The notes: generated from the sequence alone by a model not told the origin. Shown: positions 686 to 62,177, numbered from the stretch's first letter. The stretch is DNA of 64,000 nucleotides from Armatimonadota bacterium (GCA_037442365.1 JBBIQK010000005.1:1137-65136); one strand, 5' to 3'. Translations and numbers: made by a program.

Positions 686-2739
686 TCCTTCGGCAGCACG
701 ATTTCCACCAGCGCGCTCTCCACGCCGCCCGTGCCCACCGTCGAGACGGCGAAGCGGTTGGCGTTCGAGAACCAGTAGAGGTCCTGATGCATCTGCAGCC
801 GCAGGTCGATGACCGCGCTGCGCGTGTCGGGCGTCACGGTCGCCACGGGGAACCATGGGCGGTCGTTCAGCCCATCGCTGGAGACGCGCCGGTAGACCCG
901 ATACGCCACGATGATGTCGTTATAGTGCTGGTCGCGCGTGATTTCGGGCGCGTCCCAGCGCAAGCGCACCTGATGCTCGTCGATGCGCTCCACCTGCAGG
1001 TTGCGCGGCGCGGGCGGCGAGTCGGGCGAACCGTAGGGCGTGCGCAGAGTGATCGTGTACCGCTCCGTGTGCCCGCGCAGATAGGCAATCAGGAAGTCGG
1101 TAATCTCCAGCCAGTAGTAGCAGGGGCGGTCATACCTGGTGATGCGCACGAGCAGCAGCCCACGCTGCCCCACGACATTGAGGTTGCCGAACGGGTTGGG
1201 GCGGCGATGGTAGCCGTTGAGCGTGCGCACCTCCTGCACGGGGCGGTTCGGCAGGCGCAGCAGCCCCTGCGCGTCAGTCTCGCCCACAATTACAGGCTCG
1301 CTGGAGACGGGATGCCCGAAGTTGCCGTCTTCGACCACCGCATAGAAGCGCACGCCCGCCTGCTGCTGGGGCGGCTGGCTCGTGTCCACCACCACGCCGC
1401 GCTGGAAAATCTCCACCCGCGCGCCCGCCACAGGCAACCCGTTCACATCCACCACCTGCAGGAAGTTCTCAGCGGGCAACGCGAAGTAGTAGTCGCCAAA
1501 GTGCCCGCGCGGCTTGTTCCATGTGCGGTTCAGATACCCCGCGCACACCTCCGACCACAGGTGCGGACCGTGCCAGTGCATCATGGTCTTGTAGCCGCGA
1601 TAGTAATGGGTCAGCATGTCGCCGTTGTCGGGCATGCGGTGGTTCTCGTGCCCGTGATAGTCCAGCACATACAGGTCGGTCAGCCCCAGCTGGTGTCCCA
1701 GCTCGTGCGGCAGCGACCACTCGGTGTTGTTGCGCCACTGCGGTTCGGGCGCTTTCCAGGTGCGGGCGCGGTCTTCGTCGCTCACGAAAATCCAGCCGCC
1801 CTGATCGTAGGCAATCCCGTCCGCCGAGAAACGGTTGCGCACCGCTTCGTCGATGTCGTCCGCGTAGATAATCCGATCCAGCCGCACACGCGCCTTAATC
1901 CCCTCTGGCGCGGAGGGGTACACGCTCTGCTCGAACAACAGATTCATAATCTCCAGATGCCAGCGGTAGTAGTCCTCCCACGCGAAAGTGCCGTAGGCGT
2001 TGCGGAACCCGTTCCACACCTTCACGCGCTCCCTGTGGACGATGTAGAAAAACGCGAAGCCCCACAGCGGGTCGGTAACCTGATTATTAATCGTGGCGAT
2101 TTCGCGCTGGCGGGTCAGAATCTGGAACTGCACATGGTGGAACCCCTCCTGCCACTGCCAGCGGGTTTGCAGCTCGATGCGTTCCTGCGGTTTGAGTCGT
2201 TTCGTGACGCGTCCGCGGGCGATTTCTTTGTCGTCGATTCGCCAGACATACTCGAAGGGCGCGGCGTCGGCGAAGCCCACATTTTTCACATGCGCGGTCA
2301 TCGTGATAGTCTCGCCGGGCGTATACTGGAACTTCAGCCCCTGCACGACGGCTTCGGGCTGCATGTAGGCGCGTTCGCCGAGGTCGGGCAGTGAGCCGCC
2401 CGCGATTCGGGGGCGTCCGTACTGGTCGTACTCGACGCGCCCGTGCAGCCCTGCGAGTTTGGGGTTCAGCTCGATATGCGTGATGGTCAGGTCGGGCAGG
2501 TTCGGCTGGGCGTCCCACGCCGCGTCGCGCTCAATCTGGAACTCCTTGACCAGTCGGCGCGGGTAGATTGTCCAGCGATCCGTGCCCACATCTTCGAGCC
2601 GTTCCCACACCACCAGGCGCACGCCCTCGTCGCGAATGTAGCAGTTCTCGATCACGCGCCCATCGTGCAGCACGAGCCGATCGGCGCCGGCGGTCGCCAG
2701 CAGCAGCGGGAGTCCCCACAGCGGAATGCAGCGGCGCAT
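682..2739 (-). CDS. secreted zinc-metalloprotease-like protein (HExxH) with C-terminal FN3-like domain
   Basis: Signal-like N-terminus MRRCIPLWGLPLLLATAGA. HELGHQLGLTDLY zinc motif. C-terminal PPAPRNLQVERIDEHQVRLRWDAP fibronectin-III-type pattern. Protease family not assignable by eye. Confidence 0.6.
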   Translation of the reverse strand: MRRCIPLWGLPLLLATAGADRLVLHDGRVIENCYIRDEGVRLVVWERLEDVGTDRWTIYPRRLVKEFQIERDAAWDAQPNLPDLTITHIELNPKLAGLHGRVEYDQYGRPRIAGGSLPDLGERAYMQPEAVVQGLKFQYTPGETITMTAHVKNVGFADAAPFEYVWRIDDKEIARGRVTKRLKPQERIELQTRWQWQEGFHHVQFQILTRQREIATINNQVTDPLWGFAFFYIVHRERVKVWNGFRNAYGTFAWEDYYRWHLEIMNLLFEQSVYPSAPEGIKARVRLDRIIYADDIDEAVRNRFSADGIAYDQGGWIFVSDEDRARTWKAPEPQWRNNTEWSLPHELGHQLGLTDLYVLDYHGHENHRMPDNGDMLTHYYRGYKTMMHWHGPHLWSEVCAGYLNRTWNKPRGHFGDYYFALPAENFLQVVDVNGLPVAGARVEIFQRGVVVDTSQPPQQQAGVRFYAVVEDGNFGHPVSSEPVIVGETDAQGLLRLPNRPVQEVRTLNGYHRRPNPFGNLNVVGQRGLLLVRITRYDRPCYYWLEITDFLIAYLRGHTERYTITLRTPYGSPDSPPAPRNLQVERIDEHQVRLRWDAPEITRDQHYNDIIVAYRVYRRVSSDGLNDRPWFPVATVTPDTRSAVIDLRLQMHQDLYWFSNANRFAVSTVGTGGVESALVEIVLPKD

Positions 2740-2783
2740 AGTGAAATGGCAATTCGTGTGTCGCCTGCACTTTCCTGCTCAGG

Positions 2784-2789
2784 TATAAT
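2784..2789 (+). promoter_or_regulatory. -10 box (aggTATAAT) upstream of the TPM-domain gene
   Basis: GGTATAAT lies 19 nt before ATG 2809. Same extended motif as the rrn promoters in this window. Confidence 0.45.
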
Positions 2790-2808
2790 CCCCTGCTGGG
2801 GAACAGGC

Positions 2809-4098
2809 ATGCAAGGATTATGGGGACGCTGGGTGCTGAGCGCTATTGCGTTGCTCGGCGTGCTGGGGGGCTGGAGCCAGCCGATTGCGCGCGTGCCCAA
2901 CCCGCGCGCGACGGACGGGGGCTGGGTGGCGGACATGGCGGGTGTGCTGAACCCGCAACAGAAAGCCGCGCTGAACCGCATGATTGACCAGCTGGAGCGC
3001 GACACAGGAGCGGAAATCGCCGTCGTGATTGTGCGCCGCACGGAGGACGCGACCCCTAAAGAGTACGCCACCGAGCTGTTCAACCGCTGGGGCGTGGGCA
3101 AGCGCGACGCGGACAACGGCGTGCTGATGCTGGTCGCGCTGGGCGATCGGCGCGTGGAAATCGAAACAGGCTACGGGATGGAGTCCATCCTGCCCGACGC
3201 CGTCGCAGGCGAGATACTGGACACGGCGGTCGTGCCCCGATTCCGCGCGGGCGATATTGCAGGTGGCGTAATCGCTGGAGTAGAGGCGATTGCCGACCGA
3301 ATCCGCGCCGCCCAGCAAGCAGGCGCGTATGAGCCAACGGCGCCAGCCCTCCCCTACGCACCAGGAAGCTACGCCCCCCGTGAGGACACGCCTCTCGGTA
3401 GTGAGCCGTACAATCCGCAGCCCGTGCCCGCACTGCCCATCGGCGGTATCCTGCTGCTGGGCGGCGGCGCGCTGGGGCTGCTGGCGTATGCCCTGCGCGA
3501 GCGACCGCCGAAGTGCCCTTCCTGTCAGCAGCGGATGCGCCTGCTGGACGAACAAGCCGACGACGCCTACCTGAACGAACTCCAACGCGCCGAAGAGCAA
3601 CTGGGCAGCGTGAACTACCTCGTGTGGCGGTGCGACGCATGCGACACGCTGGAAATCTTTCCCAAGGTCGCGCTACTGAACGCCTACGACCGCTGCCCGA
3701 AGTGCAACGGCATGACCGTGCGCGAGACGGTGCGGGTGGTGCGCACGCCGACCTACACGCGCACAGGGCTGGAACTCATCCTGCGCCAGTGCAAAAACCC
3801 GCGCTGCAACTTCTCGGAAGAGCGCGAGCGCACCCTGCCCAAACGCGAGCGGTTCGACGACGAATGGTGGAGAGGCGCGCGCGGCGGCGGCTGGACCACT
3901 GGCGGTGGGTGGTCGTCGGGGGGCGGCTGGTCGTCCAGCGATAGCGGCTGGGGGTCGGGCGGCGGTTGGTCATCAGGCGACAGTGGCTGGTCATCAGGCG
4001 ACAGTGGCTGGTCGTCAGGCGACAGCGGTTGGTCGTCGGGCGGTGGGAGCTTCGGCGGTGGTTCGTCTGGGGGCGGCGGCGCAGGCAGGAGCTGGTGA
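2809..4098 (+). CDS. TPM-domain (YgcG-like) membrane protein with Cys4 zinc ribbons and Gly/Trp/Ser repeat tail
   Basis: Start moved to ATG 2809 (signal-like MQGLWGRWVLSAIALLGVLGG). GWVADMAGVLNPQQKAALNRMIDQLERDTGAEIAVVIV...VEIETGYG is a TPM/TLP18.3-type domain. TM segment, then CPSC...CDAC and CPKC...CKNPRC, then a GWSSGDS x4 tail. Confidence 0.8.
   Translation: MQGLWGRWVLSAIALLGVLGGWSQPIARVPNPRATDGGWVADMAGVLNPQQKAALNRMIDQLERDTGAEIAVVIVRRTEDATPKEYATELFNRWGVGKRDADNGVLMLVALGDRRVEIETGYGMESILPDAVAGEILDTAVVPRFRAGDIAGGVIAGVEAIADRIRAAQQAGAYEPTAPALPYAPGSYAPREDTPLGSEPYNPQPVPALPIGGILLLGGGALGLLAYALRERPPKCPSCQQRMRLLDEQADDAYLNELQRAEEQLGSVNYLVWRCDACDTLEIFPKVALLNAYDRCPKCNGMTVRETVRVVRTPTYTRTGLELILRQCKNPRCNFSEERERTLPKRERFDDEWWRGARGGGWTTGGGWSSGGGWSSSDSGWGSGGGWSSGDSGWSSGDSGWSSGDSGWSSGGGSFGGGSSGGGGAGRSW
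3964..4047 (+). repeat. four tandem 21-nt coding repeats (GWSSGDS units) in the TPM protein tail
   Basis: ggYtggtcRtcaggcgacagY occurs four times head-to-tail. Confidence 0.8.
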
Positions 4099-4937: not shown

Positions 4938-5852
4938 ATGGCTTCGCTACAGCGATTCATGGGCTTGGGCAAGAGTCCCGCCTACGACTCAGCGTTAGAG
5001 TATTATGAAGCGGAGCGGTACAGCGACGCGATTCCGCTCTTCGAGATGGCGATTGGCGAATGCAACGACCCGACCGTTCAGAAGCTGGCGCGGGCGTATC
5101 TGGCAGAATCGTATGCCCGGTTGGGCTATCGGCGTATCAATCAGGGCGACTGGGAGCGCGCCTACGCCTACTTCACAGCGGCGACCGACTATGCGCCCCA
5201 GTACGCCGACTGGTGGTTTCAGGCAGGCTACGCTGCCTATAAGCAAGGACAGTACGCAGACGCCCTGCGCGCGCTGCATCAGGCGACGCAGGTCAACCCC
5301 AGCTTCGGGCGCGCCTGGTTCCTGACAGGACTCGCGCAATACGCCAGCGGCGCACGCGAGCAGGGACTGACAACCCTGCAGCAATGGGCAGTGCAGCTGG
5401 GAATCACGCCTGAGCAGTTCAACGAAGCCCTTACCCTGCACCGCGAGTCGCGTTTCGCGCACGCGCAACAGGCGTTTGAGGAGATGCTGCACAACGCCCA
5501 GGACAACTACGCCGAATACATTCAGTGGGGGGATGAGGCGTACCAGCGCGGCGACCTGCAGACCGCCGAAGCGTGCTTCCGCCATGTGCTGAACGCGCGC
5601 CCGAACTACGCCGATGTGCGCAACCGACTCGGCGTCGTGCTGACCGCGCAGGGACGCGACGAGGAAGCCATCGACCAGTTCATCATCGCTGTCCGCATCA
5701 ACCCGCGCTACACGGAGGCGCACATCAACCTCGCAATCGCCTACTACGAGCTGGGCTACACTGAGCAGGCAAAAGCGCATTACCAGCAGGTGCTGGCGTA
5801 TGACCCAGACAACAGCACTGCCCGCGAGGCGCTGCAGCGAATGGCGGCGTAG
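4938..5852 (+). CDS. tetratricopeptide-repeat protein
   Basis: GGAGGG SD 8 nt upstream. Repeated A..Y....G.Y..A...F..A-type TPR units, e.g. AEACFRHVLNARPNYADVRNRLGVVLTAQGRDEEAIDQF. Confidence 0.8.
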   Translation: MASLQRFMGLGKSPAYDSALEYYEAERYSDAIPLFEMAIGECNDPTVQKLARAYLAESYARLGYRRINQGDWERAYAYFTAATDYAPQYADWWFQAGYAAYKQGQYADALRALHQATQVNPSFGRAWFLTGLAQYASGAREQGLTTLQQWAVQLGITPEQFNEALTLHRESRFAHAQQAFEEMLHNAQDNYAEYIQWGDEAYQRGDLQTAEACFRHVLNARPNYADVRNRLGVVLTAQGRDEEAIDQFIIAVRINPRYTEAHINLAIAYYELGYTEQAKAHYQQVLAYDPDNSTAREALQRMAA

Positions 5853-5864
5853 TTAGACGGCAGG

Positions 5865-5870
5865 TACAAT
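5865..5870 (+). promoter_or_regulatory. -10 box (ggTACAAT) 7 nt upstream of the mutY GTG start
   Basis: caggtacaattccgtttGTG. The spacing implies a leaderless or near-leaderless transcript. Confidence 0.45.
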
Positions 5871-5877
5871 TCCGTTT

Positions 5878-6990
5878 GTGGCGCAGGCGTCGCTCGACAC
5901 GGACTGGATACGCGAACTGCGGCGGGCGCTGCAGGCATGGTTCGCCATGCATCAGCGCCCGACCCCATGGCGCGACAATCCCGACCCGTATCGCGTGTGG
6001 GTGTCGGAGGTGATGCTCCAGCAGACACAGACAGCGACCGTTATCCCCTACTTCGAACGGTTCATCACGCGCTTCCCGACGGTACAGGCGCTGGCGGATG
6101 CGCCGCTGGAGGAGGTGCTGCGCTACTGGGAGGGGCTGGGCTACTACGCACGGGCGCGCAACCTGCACCGCGCGGCGCAGCAGATTGTCCAGAATGGCGG
6201 ACGCCTGCCAACGACCGTCGACCGCCTGCGCGAGCTGCCTGGGATCGGCGCGTACACAGCAGGCGCGATTGCCAGCATCGCCTTCGGGCAGCCGACGCCT
6301 GTGGTGGATGGGAATGTGACGCGCGTGCTGGCGCGCCTGCTGTGGCTCAAGGGCGACCTCAAAACGCACGCCGCGCAAAAGCAACTCTGGCAACTCTGCG
6401 AGCAACTGATTGACCCCCAGCAGCCCGGCGCGTTCAATCAGGCGATGATGGAGCTGGGCTCCACAGTGTGCCTGCCTGCGCAGCCGCGCTGTGGGGCGTG
6501 CCCCGTGAGCCATCTGTGCGCGGCGTATCAGCGTGGGCAGCCGACCGCCGTGCCCGAACCGTCAAGGCGCGCGGCGACCCTGACGCGCGTGGATGTCTCC
6601 GCGATAATCCTGCGCGAGGGGCAGTGCCTGCTGGCGCGGCGCGCGCCCGACGGGCTGTGGGGGGGACTGTGGGAGTTTCCGCGCGCCTCGCGGGAAAGGC
6701 GCGAGAGCCTCGAACAGGTCGCGCAGCGCGCCGCCGCGCAGGTAGGCGTCCACATCGAGCCGCTCCAGACGCTTACCAGCCTGCAACACGCCGTGACCAA
6801 CTCGCGCATTCGATTGTACGGCTACCTGTGCGCGTGGGCGTCGGGCGAGGCGCAGCCCGCGGACGCCTACGACGCCGTCGCATGGGTCGCTCCCGATGCG
6901 CTCGCCAGCTATCCCCTCTCCGCGCCCCAGCGCCGACTCGCGCGCGCCCTCACCCAGCACGGCGGGCAACTCAGCCTGCAGCAGGTATAA
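5878..6990 (+). CDS. mutY: A/G-specific adenine DNA glycosylase
   Basis: PWRDNPDPYRVWVSEVMLQQTQTATVIPYFERF...GLGYYARARNLH HhH-GPD block. Cys cluster CLPAQPRCGACPVSHLC (4Fe-4S). NUDIX-like C-terminal domain. Confidence 0.9.
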   Translation: MAQASLDTDWIRELRRALQAWFAMHQRPTPWRDNPDPYRVWVSEVMLQQTQTATVIPYFERFITRFPTVQALADAPLEEVLRYWEGLGYYARARNLHRAAQQIVQNGGRLPTTVDRLRELPGIGAYTAGAIASIAFGQPTPVVDGNVTRVLARLLWLKGDLKTHAAQKQLWQLCEQLIDPQQPGAFNQAMMELGSTVCLPAQPRCGACPVSHLCAAYQRGQPTAVPEPSRRAATLTRVDVSAIILREGQCLLARRAPDGLWGGLWEFPRASRERRESLEQVAQRAAAQVGVHIEPLQTLTSLQHAVTNSRIRLYGYLCAWASGEAQPADAYDAVAWVAPDALASYPLSAPQRRLARALTQHGGQLSLQQV

Positions 6991-8957: not shown

Positions 8958-9142
8958 CCACGCAGCCCCGAAATCGTCTCGCGCACACCTCGGAGGTGAA
9001 TCTACCCCACCAGGATAATCGGTCGCCGTGGTCCATGAAAGGGACTCGTTTTTGAACCCAAAGGGGTGACCCGCTCCTGATACCAACTGCGCCGTCAGAG
9101 TTCATAATTGCCGTGCATCTACAGCCAGAGCCACGCGCGTTT

Positions 9143-9240
9143 TGCCCTCACCCCCAGCCCCTCTCCCGCAGGCGGGCGAGGGGAGCCGTGCAAGCCTTGA
9201 GCGACACGCTATCCCCTCTCCCGAACCTTCGGGAGAGGGG
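9143..9240. repeat. GC-rich palindromic (REP-like) repeat cluster
   Basis: gccctcacccccagcccctctcccgcaggcgggcgaggggag (9143-9187) recurs inverted at 16446-16491. It is followed by a perfect 13-bp-stem hairpin cccctctcccgaa-cc-ttcgggagagggg (9213-9240). Confidence 0.75.
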
Positions 9241-9327
9241 GACAAAAGGGGCTTAAGAGGGTAGGTTTTTTTGAGGTGCGCGCTGCTTGCGGGCGCACCC
9301 AGAATATGGAGAAGCGCGTGTTCACAC

Positions 9328-9421
9328 GACGGCTGAAGCCGTTCCTATCAAACGAAGCCGACCTTCGTCGGCTATAGCCAGCGTAGGCTGGCTTTGTGTT
9401 GTAGGAACGGCTTCAGCCGTC
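9328..9421. mobile_element. MITE-like twin-hairpin element, copy A (94 nt)
   Basis: Terminal inverted repeats gacggctgaagccgttcctat / gtaggaacggcttcagccgtc. Internal stem-loops agccgac-cttc-gtcggct and agccagc-gtag-gctggct. A related copy lies at 41328-41474. Confidence 0.6.
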
Positions 9422-9695
9422 TTCTCTTCAAGCAGGACGCGAAAAAACCTACCCCTTTAAGGACAAAGTGGGTGAGGGCAACATCCAGCGCCGATTTACG
9501 AACTATGACCCGCAGATTGGTATTACTTGCTCTGTTGCAAGGATACTTGTTCCGCCTTCGGCACAGCCCACTTCGCCCCACAGGGCGCGGCGACCCCCTA
9601 CTCATGCCTGTACGGACGCGGTTCCCGCGTCCTGTTGTTCGGCTCTCCCATTCTTTGCAACAGAGCAGGTATTACTCTTCTCCCAGAATCTACGA

Positions 9696-9882
9696 GTTTC
9701 AATTAGCACCCACCCTTGGGGGTGAATGCTACTCACGGGTCCGTACTTATGGATCCGTACGACACCGAGGTTTCAATTAGCACCCACCCTTGGGGGTGAA
9801 TGCTACGGGGCCTGGCTCTACGAGTATTACACGTTGAGCCTCCCGGTTTCAATTAGCACCCACCCTTGGGGGTGAATGCTAC
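9696..9882 (-). CRISPR. orphan CRISPR mini-array, 3 repeats and 2 spacers
   Basis: Identical 37-nt repeat GTTTCAATTAGCACCCACCCTTGGGGGTGAATGCTAC at 9696, 9770 and 9846. Unique spacers of 37 and 39 nt. Internal palindrome CACCC..GGGTG. The minus-strand repeat ends in ATTGAAAC, the usual crRNA 5'-handle, hence the minus call. No cas genes in the window. Confidence 0.8.
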
Positions 9883-9887
9883 GGTAT

Positions 9888-9918
9888 AGTCTACCACATC
9901 AGACCCCCCCTTTGTCAA
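9888..9918 (-). promoter_or_regulatory. candidate array promoter (TTGACA-N19-TAGACT) reading into the array on the minus strand
   Basis: The minus strand reads cTTGACAaaggggggggtctgatgtggTAGACTatacc, then the first repeat. The 19-nt spacer is longer than optimal. Confidence 0.35.
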
Positions 9919-9939
9919 GTCCTGCGCGCGCTTCTTAAC

Positions 9940-10360
9940 AATTGACCCCCCGATTTGAACTCAACACTCTGCGCGAACCTCGACGCGATTTGAACTCAAG
10001 TGCGAATTTGGGGGAGGTTCGCGCAAAAAGTATCGTTGGGCGGCTGTTGTTCTGGGGGTGTGTTTTTGGGGTGTTTTTGAGTTCAGATTTGGGGGTGTGA
10101 TGTGGTGTTATTTGGGGGGTGAATTGGGTTCAGGTTCAACTATTTAGCGTGGCTAAGTATTGCGCGAAGGTCTGTAGACATTTGATTCAAGTTCAGAGGG
10201 GTGGGAGGTTCGCGCAAAGTTTAGCGTAGCTAAGGAGTTGAGGCGGATTGAGTTCAGGGTTTTGGGGTGTGAAGTTGAAGTGGCGCTTGAGGTTTGGGTT
10301 TGTGGGGTGTGAGTCGGTGGGGGGTTCGCGCAAAGTTTAGCGTGGCTAAGGATTTGGTGG
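9940..10360. repeat. G/T-skewed noncoding region with degenerate tandem modules (possible CRISPR leader or ncRNA)
   Basis: ggttcgcgcaaagtttagcgtRgctaagga at about 10207, 10323 and partially 10017 and 10143. tgagttcag/ttgaactcaa in both orientations. ggggtgtg runs. 12-bp inverted repeat tgcgcgaacctc (9970) / gaggttcgcgca (10014). No credible ORF. Confidence 0.55.
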
Positions 10361-10444
10361 GACGGCGAGCGGTTCCCGCCCGCGCGCGCCGTGTTGCCCC
10401 AACAGGCAGGAATCGCGCCTACCCCGCCGAATTGCGCAGGCGCT

Positions 10445-10720
10445 ATGCAACGCATTCCCGAATCGGAGCTGGCGGGCTATCTGGAGCGCGTGCCCCAATG
10501 GACGCGCGAGGGGATTGAGATCGCCCGCGCCTTCACCTTCCGCAACTTCCGCGAGGCGATGGGGTTCGTGATGCAGGTCGCGCTGCTTGCCGAACGCGCC
10601 GACCATCACCCCGACATCGAGATTCGCTACAAGCAGGTGACGCTGCGCCTCAGCACGCACTCGGCGGGCGGCTTGACTGAGAAGGACTTCGAGCTGGCGC
10701 AACAGATTGACCAGATTTGA
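10445..10720 (+). CDS. pterin-4-alpha-carbinolamine dehydratase (PCD/DCoH)
   Basis: 91 aa. FRNFREAMGFVMQVALLAERADHHPDIEIRYKQVTLRLSTHSAGGLTEKDFELA is the classic PCD motif (HHPD). Confidence 0.9.
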   Translation: MQRIPESELAGYLERVPQWTREGIEIARAFTFRNFREAMGFVMQVALLAERADHHPDIEIRYKQVTLRLSTHSAGGLTEKDFELAQQIDQI

Positions 10721-54572: not shown

Positions 54573-54793
54573 TTGAAAGGGTAATCGCACCTTTTGAGAG
54601 GGTCGGTTCCCTCTCAGGAGGTGTTTGACAACTGGAGCTGGAGTCGTCGGAAGTGCGTCAATAGGCAAGCCCTCGGTCAATTAGTACGGCTCAGCTCAAC
54701 GCATTACTGCGCTTACACATGCCGCCTATCAACCCGGTCATCTACCGGGGACCTTACTCCGTTAAACGGATGGGAGACCTTATCTTGGGGTGG

Positions 54794-54824
<31 letters not shown>

Positions 54825-54970
54825 CCGTCCCGACATGGCTACCCAGCGTCTGCCCCTGGCGGGACAACTGGTACACCAGAGGTCAGTCCAGCCCGGTCCT
54901 CTCGTACTAGGGCCAGCTCCCCTCAAGTCTCCTGCGCCTGCGGTGGATAGGGACCGAACTGTCTCACGCA

Positions 54971-55801
54971 CATACCTCCCTTGTTTCCAAGGGTGTAGAC
55001 TATACCTCCATCCTCCCGAAGGACCAGGAGGAGCCGGCGTGTGATGAGCGCCATAGATTTGCCCTCTTCAGGGCAGGACGCCCATCTCAGGCGTAAAGCC
55101 TTCAGTCGTTACGGGGAACGGCAGCTTGCACCGCATCACTGGCACAACATAGGGTTCAATCAGTTGCACAAGCCGTTGCGCCTGTTTCACTGGGAGATAG
55201 AGCCAGTGCGCGTGTCGCTTCGGACTTGCGTGGATATGCGCCTCCAAACCAAAGTTTGCTTCGAGCGCACCACACAGGCGTTCCAAACCGATTCTGGAAA
55301 AGCACTGCGTCTCTATCTTGACCGAACCCTGTCGTTTGTCAAGTGTGCCATCGTCCATGTACCAGACTGCAAGCGCCAGAGGCGTGTTGAGCAATTCAAC
55401 GATGTTCTCTGGAACCTCTTTTCTCCCATGAGGGTAGAAAAGCGCTCGCAGCTCTGCAAGGAGCGGATGGCATCGGGTGACGAAACGCCAGTATGGGTAG
55501 CCTCTGTTGGTTTGACGATTCATCGGGGATGGTTTCAAATCCGCCAGCATTGCGTGCTTCCACGCCACATAGTCGCGGAAGCGTTCGGCGTGCAAGACCT
55601 GAAGGCGCACGCCGCGCCCGTGCGGTTCGAGATAGCCATCTCCGAGAATCGTGCCAATCAGAAGGTCCTTCATCTTCAGCTCCCGTTCTTCCCTCGGTAT
55701 TGCCCTCTGCAGCGTTCGGTGGACTGCAGGAGGGGTCTACCGATATGAGCCGGTAGGCACCACAGGATTACTCCTGTGGGACGCCACGCCCGTTTGGGCT
55801 A
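54971..55801 (-). mobile_element. group I-type intron 1 (831 nt) at the E. coli U2593-equivalent site, HEG-containing
   Basis: Exon junction GGGTTCAGAACGT|...G|CGTGAGACAGTTCGG. U precedes the 5' splice site and the intron ends in G. GCGU near the intron 5' end can pair with exon ACGU (U.G wobble). GNRA-capped hairpin CCCTTGGAAACAAGGG. Confidence 0.8.
55068..55673 (-). CDS. double-motif LAGLIDADG homing endonuclease (in intron 1)
   Basis: LIGTILGDGYLE and LAVWYMDDGTLD motifs about 100 aa apart. 201 aa. The last ~17 codons overlap the conserved intron core. Confidence 0.85.
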   Translation of the reverse strand: MKDLLIGTILGDGYLEPHGRGVRLQVLHAERFRDYVAWKHAMLADLKPSPMNRQTNRGYPYWRFVTRCHPLLAELRALFYPHGRKEVPENIVELLNTPLALAVWYMDDGTLDKRQGSVKIETQCFSRIGLERLCGALEANFGLEAHIHASPKRHAHWLYLPVKQAQRLVQLIEPYVVPVMRCKLPFPVTTEGFTPEMGVLP

Positions 55802-55837
<36 letters not shown>

Positions 55838-55883
55838 TGAACCCCCCAACCCTTGGGACCTTATTCAGCCCCAGGATGCGACG

Positions 55884-56248
55884 CATGGTACTCCACTGTT
55901 TCCAGTGGCACAGACTATCGCATCACCTTGACCATCGCCTGTCAAGGGTTCGGCGTATGATGAGCGCCGTAGATTTGCCCCATTCAGGGCAAGACGCCCA
56001 TCTCAGGCATGAAGCCTTCAGTCGTTACGGGGTCAGAGGAGCTTGTATTCCATTACTGGAGGTACATAGGGACGGGAATGCTGGCGATGCCCGTCGCTTT
56101 GTACCGTGCTGCAGAAAGTGTGCAGCATTTTCGGCTCCTCGACTTCCCACGGGATTACCCTCGCCAATCGGGGGAGGATTGCGTTAGGGCTTCCCCGTTA
56201 TCAGCCGAATTTTACCTGAAGAGTCGCCTCTTCAGGGGCCCTTCGTTG
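55884..56248 (-). mobile_element. group I-type intron 2 (365 nt, ORF-less) at about E. coli U2511
   Basis: Junction GATGTCGGCT|CAACGAAGG...CCATG|CGTCGCATCCTGGGG. U at -1 and terminal G. GGCC near the 5' end pairs with exon GGCU. Shares a 75-nt block (about 69/75 identical) and the P9-like GAAA hairpin with intron 1. Confidence 0.75.
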
Positions 56249-56497
56249 AGCCGACATCGAGGTGCCAAACCCCGCCGTCGCTGTGGACGCTCGGGCAGGA
56301 TCAGCCTGTTATCCCTAGGGTAGCTTTTATCCGTTGAACCCTGGCGTGCCCACGCACAGCCAGAGGGTCACTAGGCCCTGCTTTCGCATCTGCTCGACCC
56401 GTTGGTCTCACAGTCAAGCCCGCTTATGCCCTTGCACTCGACGCGCGATTTCCGACCGCGCTGAGCGGACCTTTGGACGCCTCCGTTACCGTTTAGG

Positions 56498-57443
<946 letters not shown>

Positions 57444-57716
57444 AAGACTGTCTCCACGCCGGATCACGGCGCAGGTTAGCATTCCAGTAGGTCAAGGGTG
57501 GTGTTCCATTGGCGCCGAAGCTCCCACCTACGCTCTACATGACATACCGAAATGCAATCTCAAGCTGTAGTAAAGCTCCATAGGGTCTTTCCGTCCTACC
57601 GCAGGTAACCCGCATCTTCACGGGTGCTACAGTTTCACCGAGAGTCCCGCTGAGACAGTGGCCCAGTCGTTACGCTTTTCGTGCGGGTCGCAATTTACGC
57701 GACAAGGAATTTCGCT

Positions 57717-58035
57717 TATCGCCTTACCCGAGAAGTTGTCTCGAGCGAGCCACACCCTTCCTTGTCATAGGGAATAGCTCCTGCATGTCGCCATGCAGAT
57801 GGGACCATCTCTTCACCTCGTCGTTGAGGTACCCAGCGTATGGTCTCTGAGGATTCTAATCACCGAAAGTGATTAGTCTTTCCTGCTGGTTGTCCGCACC
57901 AGACGGATTGTTACTCACAGGAATTGTATTTTCTCACGGGTGAGAATTTCCTGCAAGTACCGCTGGATACTCGGAGTTTCCAGCATATAGCTGGGTGCGC
58001 ACCTCATGGTTACCCATGAGGGGGGCAGCGAAGGT
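57717..58035 (-). mobile_element. intervening sequence 4 (319 nt, ORF-less) at the E. coli U1931-equivalent site, related to intron 3
   Basis: Junction CGGTCCTATGGT|ACCTTCGCTGCC...GGCGATA|AGCGAAATTCCTTGTCG. Shares GCTATATGCTGGRAASTCCG, GCGGACAAYCAGCAGGRAAG and CCTCAACGAC with intron 3. The 3' end is not a G under this alignment (see findings). Confidence 0.65.
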
Positions 58036-58239
58036 ACCATAGGACCGTTAGAGTTACGGCCGGCATTCACCCGGGCTTCAGTTCAGGGCTGCACCTTGCG
58101 GCTGACCCCTCCCCTTAACCTACGGGCATTGGCCAAGCGTCGCCCCCTATACATCGGGTTTCCCCTTCGCAGAGAGCTGTGTTTTTGGTAAACAGTCGCC
58201 GGGCCCGCTTTGCTGCGACCTCTTTCGAGGCACCCCTTC

Positions 58240-58273
<34 letters not shown>

Positions 58274-58823
58274 TAGCGGGACTTCTCTCGCGCGCCTGAG
58301 GCTCCTCGCCTCGCCTACCTGTGTCGGTTTGCGGTACGGTCAGGTGGTTTCAACGCTACACGGGTTTTCTCGGCTCCAGTCACAGTCGCTTCGTTCACCC
58401 GAAGGATCCCTTCGTCGCCCCAGAGTTGCCGCTGGGGCGAGCGCAGCCTTCCAACTCTGCGCCCGACCGATTCTGAAGCGTCGCCGTTTTGCTCCGCCAC
58501 CTGGGGTGGGAATGTTGACCCACTGCCCTTCGCCTACGGCTTTTCGCCCTCGACTTAGGACCGCCTAACCTTCAGCGGACGAACCTGCCTGAAGAACCCT
58601 TAGGCTTTCGGCGGACGGGATTCTCACCCGTCTTCTCGCTACTCGTGCCGGCATTCTCACTTCTGCACGCTCCAGCGGTGCTTTCGCTCCGCCTTCACTG
58701 CGAGCAGAACGCTCCCCTACCGCTCCCATTGCTGGGAACCCGCCGCTTCGGTAACAGGCTTGAGCCCCCTTACATTATCGGCGCAGGGTCACATTCGACC
58801 AGTCAGCTGTTACGCACTGTTTA

Positions 58824-58854
<31 letters not shown>

Positions 58855-59743
58855 TTGTTTACGCGACCCTACATCCTTTAACACTTAGCCTGTGTTTAGG
58901 GACCTTAGCGGGCGGTCTGGGCTATTGCCCTTTTGACAACGGCGCTCATCCGTCGCTGTCTCACTGCCACGGTTCCTGCTATGCCATTCGGAGTTTGGTT
59001 GGGTTCGGTAACCTGGTGGGGCCCCTAGCCCATCCAGTGGCTCTACCTGCACAGCATAATCCGTGACGCTGCACCTCAATGCATTTCGGGGAGAACCAGC
59101 TATCTCCGCGCTCGATTGGCATTTCACCACACTAACCCCAGTTCCTCCGAGACCTTTTCAACGGTCACCAGTTCGGCCCTCCACCGTGTGTTACCACGGC
59201 TTCAGCCTGACCAGGGTTAGATCGCGCGGTTTCGGGTCTGCACCCAGCGACTGGAACGCCCTGTGTGGACTCGCTTTCGCTACGGCTCCGCGTCTGAGAC
59301 GCTTAACCTTGCCGCTGAGCACAACTCGCCGGCTCATTCTGCAAAAGGCACACCGTCAGACTGTCCCCCAGAGGGGTATAGTCCTCCGATTGTTTGTAAG
59401 CGCACGGTTTCAGGTTCTGTTTCACTCCCCTCGCCGGGGTGCTTTTCACCTTTCCCTCACGGTACTGGTTGCGCTATCGGTAGCAAGGAGTATTTAGCCT
59501 TACCCGGTGGTCCGGGCAGATTCGCACAGGGTTCCTCTTATCCCGTGCTACTCGGGATTCCGACGAGGCGTTCCACTTTTCGCATACGGGGCTGTCACCC
59601 GCTGTGGCGTGCCTTTCCAGACACTTCTGCTAAGCGGTTCGCTCTCTGATGTCGGTCCCACGACCCCAATCGGGCACGCCCGATTGGTTTAGGCTCTTCC
59701 CCGTTCGCTCGCCGCTACTGAGGGAATCTCGTTCGATTTCTTT

Positions 59744-59784
<41 letters not shown>

Positions 59785-60082
59785 CACACCGCCTATGGGT
59801 TCAGCGGTGGGTGACCACCCATTCGGTGGCCGGGTTCTCCCATTCGGGGATCTGCGGATCAACGCCTGTTTGCGGCTCCTCGCAGCTTATCGCAGCTTAC
59901 CACGCCCTTCATCGGCTCCTTGCTCCTAGGCATCCGCCGTGCGCCCTTAGTAGCTTGCCTACTTTGGCGCGCTTCTCGATGACTCCAGTCCAGTTGTCAA
60001 AGGGTAAATCGTTGGGTCCGTTGCCCGTTGTTGGCGCCTACAGCCCAACCGTCAACGCCCCGTGAGGCGCTGAGGGTTAGGT

Positions 60083-61979: not shown

Positions 61980-62009
61980 ATTATACCACATCCCAAGCGC
62001 GTTTGTCAA
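61980..62009 (-). promoter_or_regulatory. rrn promoter P2 (TTGACA-N18-ggTATAAT)
   Basis: The minus strand reads cccTTGACAaacgcgcttgggatgtggTATAATcagac, about 158 nt upstream of the 16S 5' end. Confidence 0.6.
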
Positions 62010-62090
62010 GGGCATAGCCCTCCGCACGCAGTTTCTGGGATCTCAAGGTACTCACTGCGCCCCAAAGTCCCTTGCTTTGAGGCGGGCTAT

Positions 62091-62120
62091 ATAATACCAT
62101 GCCCACGACAGCGTTGTCAA
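62091..62120 (-). promoter_or_regulatory. rrn promoter P1 (TTGACA-N18-ggTATTAT)
   Basis: The minus strand reads cccTTGACAacgctgtcgtgggcatggTATTATatagc. Same architecture as P2, about 110 nt further upstream. Confidence 0.55.
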
Positions 62121-62177
62121 GGGGTTAAGCCCAATTCCGGGCAAATTCCCCCGAATTTTCCCCGATTCCGCGCGTCC

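Follow-up and report, generated by a model that had tools for sequence, protein, structure and literature searches.

A probable long and modular CRISPR leader beside a mini-array of an Armatimonadota bacterium

The leaders of CRISPR arrays are non-coding, vary in length up to a few hundred base pairs, and regulate both spacer acquisition and transcription (PMC12638026). According to one study (bioRxiv 10.1101/2023.05.26.542337), most type I-F and I-C leaders, and some I-E leaders, contain multiple subtype-specific motifs up to 100-200 bp upstream. By the same account, integration host factor (IHF) and these upstream motifs fold the leader DNA of I-E, I-F and I-C systems, whereby Cas1-Cas2 finds the first repeat, and in type I-F a Cas2 dimer binds two inverted-repeat motifs. 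Isolated or orphan arrays can be gained or lost as cassettes, one example being an isolated array in P. aeruginosa (PMC13142298). Here we describe a non-coding stretch in a 64,000-nucleotide sequence of an Armatimonadota bacterium (GCA_037442365.1, JBBIQK010000005.1:1137-65136; the whole sequence is hereafter called the window), which separates a small CRISPR array from the pterin-4a-carbinolamine dehydratase (PCD) gene at 10445-10720. We estimate at roughly 85% the probability that this block is the leader of the adjacent array, with the minus strand as its functional strand; that it is a leader at all, taken by itself, we hold a shade more firmly. The leader family is new and well populated, and the element type, a CRISPR leader, is already known.

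The mini-array (9696-9882, minus strand) consists of three identical 37-nt repeats, at 9696-9732, 9770-9806 and 9846-9882, which enclose two spacers. On the minus strand the repeat reads GTAGCATTCACCCCCAAGGGTGGGTGCTAATTGAAAC and ends in ATTGAAAC; the Rfam model CRISPR-DR9 matches the array on this strand with a sub-threshold score. The copy at 9846-9882 is the leader-proximal, or first, repeat, and the leader directly abuts it, starting at 9883 and extending on the minus strand over ~473 nt to a distal end at ~10355. A preliminary description of this DNA had delimited a repetitive block at 9940-10360. This block is real and forms the larger part of the leader, but its bounds have to be shifted, with the true unit running from the repeat at 9883 to ~10355.

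Related genomes provide the evidence for a leader. A scan of representative genomes with the pattern TTCGCGCAA-N(1-4)-TTAGCNNNGCTAA returned 12 matches. Four of these belong to a close relative, Fimbriimonadales bacterium KatS3mg018, whose genome is complete (AP024673.1); a second Armatimonadota genome has two, both at the ends of contigs; and the other six, isolated ones in unrelated taxa, are taken as chance. All four KatS3mg018 matches adjoin CRISPR arrays with the repeat of the window, in the same relative orientation. Together with the window copy these make five flanks that are ~90-93% identical over 472 nt from the repeat outward; the identity ends sharply after GCTAAGGATT (window 10354-10355), and the sequences are unrelated beyond. 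Searching metagenomes for the module yielded 90 loci (loci are cited below by L numbers), ~78 of which carry an array of the same family in the same orientation, and the distance from module to repeat is 321-325 or 436-440 nt in nearly all array loci (outliers at 261, 310 and 455 nt). The unique full-length leaders number 62 and are 65-93% identical to the window copy, the 57 from metagenomes at 65-80%, and they are found in thermophilic, hot-spring Fimbriimonadales (Armatimonadota). In ~480 kb of DNA from this group of organisms, leader zones contain 242 copies of the palindrome TTAGCRTRGCTAA and 296 of the box GGTTCGCGCA, compared with one and two copies, respectively, outside them. The preliminary description had proposed looking for its 30-nt module beside other arrays, with random scatter as the outcome that would speak against a link; the module turns out to be tied to arrays, and its motifs are nearly confined to leaders. 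It had also regarded the block as much longer and more repetitive than a typical leader, and so as perhaps something else. This objection is not supported, as the whole 472 nt travels with arrays of the same family as one sharply bounded unit. Given that leaders reach a few hundred base pairs (PMC12638026), ~470 bp is long yet within the known range.

Where a module locus does not carry an array, either the contig ends there or an insertion or deletion has cut the leader short. Leaders of this kind were seen at L013, L044, L080/L096 and L021/L058/L067/L085/L092, some of them cut on the array side by unrelated DNA, and one recurrent array-less locus holds a single degenerate repeat and the terminal module only, with an inserted gene between the two. 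A shared GGCAGGAATCGCG had made us consider that array-less remnants (L013, L021 and others) sit at the window's own locus; this was rejected, the loci having no PCD homologue.

The orientation of the array follows from four independent criteria, all of them standard concepts (PMC12638026). The KatS3mg018 locus L002 is arranged as cas1-cas2-leader-array, with all parts co-directional and the leader boundary ~12 nt past the cas2 stop codon. Only the leader-side flank is conserved, the far-end flanks being unrelated between arrays. In many related arrays the terminal repeats at the far end are degenerate, with the outer ~10 nt replaced. Finally, spacer turnover is polarised: L027 and L097 have nine far-end spacers in common and 7 and 12 private spacers on the leader side, L051 and L055 show the same pattern of common far-end and differing leader-side spacers, and L061 has the spacers of L048 and 13 more on the leader side. 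Related populations gain new spacers at the repeat that adjoins the leader. As these four lines agree, the array is read on the minus strand, and the suggestion that the block lies on the leader side if the array is read in this way is borne out. In the window copy itself all three repeats are identical.

The composition of the leader is unusual. As had been noted, the plus strand is strikingly rich in G+T: the fraction over 10007-10356 is 0.737, the maximum of all 350-nt windows in the 64 kb (mean 0.503, standard deviation 0.039, next best 0.66). G+C drops to 0.48-0.53, compared with 0.66-0.75 in the flanks, and the GC skew reaches 0.58-0.59. The G+T richness is kept across the 62 leaders, with a median of 0.74 at leader positions 121-473. 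It is the product of G-rich filler that lies in the same orientation between the motifs, and of this filler the composition, not the sequence, is conserved. Moreover, the block contains an old duplication of ~116 nt: its halves (10011-10127 and 10202-10317) align with a score of 69, compared with 42.8 +/- 6.0 in shuffled sequence, and the duplication is considered real because none of 300 dinucleotide shuffles equalled this score. Tandem Repeats Finder reported nothing in the block, the duplication being too decayed for this tool. No open reading frame (ORF) is shared across the leader copies; stop-free stretches are present, but the alignment carries indels. The block is non-coding, as had been noted.

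Three further ideas were tried and rejected. Peaks of helical or tandem periodicity at 19 and 11.5 nt occur in averaged related leaders, with p = 0.6 and 0.2 in the window copy alone. An apparent excess of G-to-T substitutions (G/T differences make up 42% of variable columns) is near the expectation from composition and is confounded by alignment slippage in low-complexity sequence, and is not counted as a sign of selection. Local alignments of the repeat to the leader, which might have revealed the modules as decayed CRISPR repeats, were matched by 6 of 200 and 126 of 200 shuffles.

The upstream part of the leader is built from a small set of motifs: five GGTTCGCGCA boxes, three 13-bp palindromes (TTAGCGTGGCTAA) and five or six TTGARYTCAA near-palindromes, laid out as two long inverted repeats and one terminal direct copy, set in G/T-rich filler. 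Counting outward from the array, the conserved box GCGCTTCTTAACAAT (9928-9942), recognised by its conservation across related leaders, precedes the first composite inverted repeat, IR-1 (9945-10096), which emerged from the inverted-repeat search, from folding and from the leader alignment. The outer arms of IR-1 are CCCCCCGATTTGAACTCAA (9945-9964) and TTGAGTTCAGATTTGGGGGT (10077-10096), and its inner arms are the 12-bp inverted repeat TGCGCGAACCTC (9970-9981) and GAGGTTCGCGCA (10014-10025), present as described before. IR-1 also contains the second TTGAACTCAA (9990-9999). It is overlapped by the first G/T-rich filler (10026-10130, plus strand), in which GGGGTGTG runs are broken by TTGAGTTCAG at 10077-10086, and whose sequence is poorly conserved while its G+T composition is conserved. 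The second inverted repeat, IR-2 (10136-10241), has arms at 10136-10168 and 10209-10241 around a 40-nt centre; as with the conserved box and IR-1, no strand is assigned to it. Its first arm comprises palindrome C1 (TTAGCGTGGCTAA, 10144-10156) and the inverted box TTGCGCGAAGG (10160-10170), and its second arm the box GGTTCGCGCAA (10207-10217) and palindrome C2 (TTAGCGTAGCTAA, 10221-10233). The conserved centre, GTAGACATTTGATT, includes TAGACATTTGATT at 10175-10187, a match on the minus strand to the IHF consensus with one mismatch. The second G/T-rich filler (10242-10320, plus strand) holds the conserved TTGAGTTCAG at 10248-10257 together with AAGTTGAAGT and TTGAGGTTTGGG, and is homologous to 10026-10130, reflecting the old ~116-nt duplication. 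The terminal module (10321-10355, plus strand) consists of GGGGTTCGCGCAA, AGT, palindrome C3 (TTAGCGTGGCTAA, 10337-10349) and GGATT; it is a direct copy of box plus palindrome and marks the distal boundary of the leader.

Every module listed in the preliminary description is recovered in this anatomy, at the place given there. The 30-nt module GGTTCGCGCAAAGTTTAGCGTRGCTAAGGA, said to occur twice nearly complete, is exact at 10207 and 10323, with no further copy in the 64 kb when three mismatches are allowed (none expected). Partial copies had been placed near 10017 and 10143, each with a mini-hairpin. Both copies exist, but the one near 10143 is inverted, with the palindrome first and then TTGCGCGAAGG, to which the GGTTCGCGCAA-type box is reverse-complementary. 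The one near 10017 is a GGTTCGCGCAA box only, which does not have the palindrome. TTAGCGTRGCTAA is found at 10144, 10221 and 10337. The motif reported in both orientations is present as TTGAACTCAA at 9955 and 9990 and as TTGAGTTCAG at 10077 and 10248, its double orientation being only apparent because it is a near-palindrome, TTGA-NN-TCAA. The recurring runs are four GGGGTGTG stretches, at 10055, 10092, 10264 and 10304.

The spacing of these motifs is nearly invariant across the leaders measured, with 77 nt between palindromes 1 and 2, 116 nt between palindromes 2 and 3 (115 in one or two leaders), and 43 nt between the inner boxes of IR-1. The alleles of the boxes, GGTTCGCGCA and GGTTCGCCA(C/G), are mosaic over the five box positions of different leaders (9970-10025 and 10160-10217), and the arms of one inverted repeat usually, though not always, have the same allele. 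Such mosaicism suggests recombination or gene conversion among leader copies.

At the array end of the leader lies a candidate promoter for the precursor of the CRISPR RNAs (pre-crRNA), on the minus strand at 9888-9918. It comprises a -35 hexamer TTGACA (9918-9913), a 19-nt spacer, TGG, and a -10 hexamer TAGACT (9893-9888), and ends 5 nt from the first repeat. Both hexamers hardly vary in sequence, and their positions are fixed in 57-60 of 60 leaders, with a spacer of 18-20 nt (19 nt in 51 of the 60). The candidate resembles two rRNA promoters of the window, TTGACA-N18-TGG-TATTAT and TTGACA-N18-TGG-TATAAT. We infer that the last 36 nt before the repeat constitute the array promoter, with a predicted pre-crRNA start at about the leader-repeat junction; as the candidate is flush with the repeat, the remaining ~435 bp would be untranscribed upstream DNA. 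A weak promoter-like site is also present on the plus strand, TTGTCA (9911-9916)-N18-TAACAA, and includes the GCGCTTCTTAACAAT box. About half of the related leaders have TAACAT in place of TAACAA, and the promoter scan flags this variant in L014 (9 of 12 matches); the window and KatS3mg018 both have TAACAA.

How does this leader compare with described ones? Like CRISPR leaders generally, it abuts the first repeat, is common to the arrays of one repeat family, has a lower G+C content than its surroundings and a promoter-like site, and new spacers enter beside it. Unlike typical leaders, its 472 nt are kept as one block at the long end of the range and are internally duplicated and inverted; the strand bias is a strong keto (G+T) skew instead of simple A+T richness; and, because the predicted promoter directly adjoins the first repeat, nearly all of the leader would be untranscribed. 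The I-F, I-E and I-C leaders described by the Wiedenheft laboratory also have several short motifs, partly palindromic, whose distances upstream of the first repeat are fixed. In our case, too, a motif pair flanks a conserved near-IHF segment, and the linked Cas1 belongs to the Cas1c family. In contrast to those leaders, there is no exact IHF site in 60 leaders, the motif sequences are unrelated, and the motifs reach -470 as opposed to 100-200 bp, a comparison made with the description of those leaders and not with published motif models.

The motif types are probably docking sites for proteins that act in spacer integration, in promoter control, or in both. The ~435 bp of upstream DNA could form a scaffold of such putative sites at fixed spacing, which would mark this end of the array for integration by Cas1-Cas2 and/or set promoter activity. 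We propose this role by analogy, because upstream motifs act in this way in I-E, I-F and I-C leaders. The preliminary description had offered a protein-binding array as an alternative to a leader; as an alternative it does not stand, and it lives on, putatively, as the make-up of the leader. As to what the modules do, a scaffold for integration is our tentative choice, at slightly less than even odds; an array of operators for a transcription factor is possible, if more doubtful; and anything else seems improbable. Taken to its limit, the ~435 bp might be one large nucleoprotein scaffold, two to three times the length of any characterised leader. Its three box-plus-palindrome modules and two long inverted repeats would wrap the DNA about Cas1-Cas2, or about a leader-binding protein of its own, with no canonical IHF site, as a thermophile-specific way to find the first repeat; in a variant, the scaffold would be read as a divergent, G/U-rich structured RNA. 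This far-reaching version we regard as rather unlikely.

Several observations weigh against a minus-strand leader with an integration scaffold. The array in the window has two spacers only, and neither, searched as a protospacer in viral contigs, gave an exact match. No cas1 or cas2 was found in the 64-kb window, and when PADLOC was run on 88 ORFs of the flanks, Cas1 was the only Cas family among the 25 best-scoring of 115 matched families, below which weak Cas matches could lie. The exact IHF consensus WATCAANNNNTTR is missing from all 60 leaders searched; the nearest is the conserved one-mismatch site in the centre of IR-2, which reads AATCAAATGTCTA on the minus strand (10175-10187). The motifs extend to -470, more than twice the reach of any functionally mapped leader motif. 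The sole palindrome found outside leaders follows a TATAAT upstream of Rieske and SufS-like genes, which fits a general transcription factor better than Cas1-Cas2. Finally, the candidate promoter has a 19-nt spacer and a -10 hexamer with 4 of 6 matches, and the promoter scan does not call it, because the scan permits only spacers of 16-18 nt.

The strongest rival to an integration scaffold is that the modules are operators and have no part in spacer integration; a dimeric transcription factor bound to them would form a loop in the upstream DNA and thereby switch the crRNA promoter. Regulation of leaders by DNA-binding proteins is known in other bacteria, with H-NS and LeuO in E. coli and CRP in Thermus, and this supports the operator reading. 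So do three perfect 13-bp palindromes whose centres are spaced by 77 and 116 nt, the latter equal to ~11 helical turns, and the place of the only non-leader palindrome directly after a TATAAT upstream of Rieske and cysteine-desulfurase genes, the classic position of a repressor site. However, a single non-leader site in 480 kb exceeds the chance expectation (~0.06) only marginally, the arrays have no linked regulator gene, a general regulator should have sites at more promoters, and the motifs reach 470 bp from the promoter. In its strict form we find this reading unlikely; sequence alone does not separate an integration scaffold from an operator array. The non-leader site itself lies in L020 (4545-4580) as TATAAT-TTAGCCACGCTAA, in an operator-like position: a Rieske-domain gene begins ~15 nt downstream, and after it comes a gene for a class-V aminotransferase (SufS-like).

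The block had also been suggested to be a non-coding RNA instead of a leader. That form of the idea is not supported, with an Rfam search of 9883-10357 yielding nothing at the gathering threshold or at E <= 1 and the block travelling with arrays. A milder form is that the leader also encodes, on the plus strand, a divergent structured G/U-rich non-coding RNA of ~400 nt, with a promoter that shares the TTGACA/TGTCAA region and a fold into IR-1 and IR-2 hairpins. Such a promoter might be the plus-strand site, flagged as TTGTCA-N18-TAACAT in L014 (9/12), whose TTCTTAACA box is nearly invariant; its -10, however, is TAACAA in the window and KatS3mg018 and does not have the key final T, and no terminator-like site was found in the leader. 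The plus strand folds with -177.7 kcal/mol (z = -4.9), 97.4% of the inverted-repeat helix cells pair, and RNAalifold recovers IR-1 and IR-2. Since the minus strand folds with a better z (-6.4), we attribute the fold signal to inverted repeats at the DNA level. The covariation check among homologues that had been proposed gave a divided answer. Compensatory changes are seen: in IR-1, 4 of 24 leaders differ at three adjacent inner pairs (TGCG to GTGG, matched by CGCA to CCAC), with the pairing broken in 2-4, and in IR-2 two pairs change together in three leaders. But double changes affect 6 of 48 pairs, a count that is not significant (68 of 500 shuffles reach it); the cell-level measures beat all shuffles but depend on no more than one or two events, and both compensatory sets are broken in recombinant leaders. 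Many one-sided changes retain G-U pairs on the plus strand, and the G/T skew is conserved, although a G-U preference is expected from composition alone. We consider an RNA of this kind quite unlikely, and a weaker reading than a leader that encodes no RNA.

Least of all could the block be a decayed mobile element (a miniature inverted-repeat transposable element or the end of an insertion sequence) placed by chance beside the array, a reading largely refuted and to our minds very improbable. In its favour, genuine miniature mobile elements abound in the region (e.g. 9520-9675), the whole 1.445-kb segment is missing from the orthologous site of KatS3mg018 and truncated array-less leaders exist. 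Against it, all full copies lie directly beside an array and face the same way, the block is bounded on one side by the repeat itself, there are neither terminal inverted repeats nor target duplications at its ends, no independent copies occur in 480 kb, the array-less copies are truncated by insertions or deletions, and no similarity to the leader or module was found in plasmids, phages or viral contigs.

The leader reading settles the orientation of this array, and of the arrays of its whole repeat family, in an uncultured hot-spring lineage, and defines the leader of that family. For adaptation biochemistry, the 62 leader variants constitute a natural data set, with fixed spacing, mosaic box alleles, truncations and junction insertions. 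Should integration turn out to need the distal modules, leader signals would be known to act over ~470 bp and no longer over ~200 bp only; if not, this is a well-documented ordinary leader.

The type of the associated system was approached through the cas genes of relatives. The Cas1 of L002, where cas1-cas2 occupy 1879-3255, is a Cas1c-family protein, with a score of 404.6 bits for the model TIGR03640 (cut-off 385) and 2.6e-123 for PADLOC Cas1c; this Cas1c protein is found in relatives and not in the window. In both L002 and L046, cas1-cas2 stand alone beside unrelated genes, with neither cas4 nor effector genes, and the type I-C effector set (cas3, cas5c, cas8c, cas7c and cas4) was not found beside them. 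PADLOC on 10 further flank proteins, run singly, returned no Cas protein. The scan for effector genes gave one match to a CARF/LolE-like permease, not traced to a gene. A Cas1c-type integrase alone is not taken as an assignment to type I-C, and the repeat is 37 nt long. In L046, an IS110-family transposase element (5433-6814) interrupts cas2 immediately upstream of the leader.

The surroundings of the array differ between the window and KatS3mg018. Between the gene for a 177-aa membrane protein and PCD the window has 1,487 nt, compared with 43 nt in KatS3mg018 (L103, 5681-5723). The Nnr proteins of the two, encoded by the gene next after PCD and thus the second from the leader, are 97% identical. 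What is missing in KatS3mg018 is a cassette of ~1.445 kb at 8958-10402 (no strand assigned; bounds +/- ~2 nt), which holds the array with its leader, dispersed repeats and 47 unique nt. An array-plus-leader cassette that lies between housekeeping genes is thus polymorphic for presence and absence. Its junctions show only CA(C/G)GCAG-like microhomology, and more distant relatives also have no array beside PCD. The isolated array of P. aeruginosa (PMC13142298) offers a parallel: a small array far from cas genes, with a full leader, among housekeeping neighbours and missing in a close relative. Compared with such cassettes, we see here only microhomology-like junctions and many adjoining miniature mobile elements.

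One of these, a miniature mobile element of ~125-155 nt at 9520-9675, has the terminal inverted repeats TGCTCTGTTGC...GCAACAGAGCA and lies 20 nt past the far end of the array, between GTATTAC direct repeats. Members of the same family are inserted exactly where the leader meets the repeat in L082 and L101, with a 9-bp duplication (CTACGGTAT), and in L089, which has a mobile-element insertion at this junction, the leader has also lost its proximal ~190 nt, and with them the promoter-like site. Farther out, nested palindromic dispersed repeats occupy 9080-9480, with 47-nt arms (9328-9421) inside 9252-9271/9442-9461, themselves inside 9142-9153/9470-9481. Copies of these repeats, at 81-92% identity, are found near the far ends of the KatS3mg018 arrays L002 and L004, and also away from arrays (L103, L008).

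Elsewhere in the window, the 23S rRNA gene (54673-59946, minus strand) spans ~5.3 kb and is split into several model segments. It contains two group I introns, at 57161-57424 and 57781-58042 (Rfam, 59.5 and 61.5 bits), and its large insertions may carry ORFs for homing endonucleases. The two rRNA promoters mentioned above are arranged in tandem at 61985-62125 on the minus strand, with perfect TTGACA hexamers, 18-nt spacers and TGG-extended -10 boxes (TATTAT and TATAAT), and can usefully serve as a standard for how promoters are built in this uncultured lineage.

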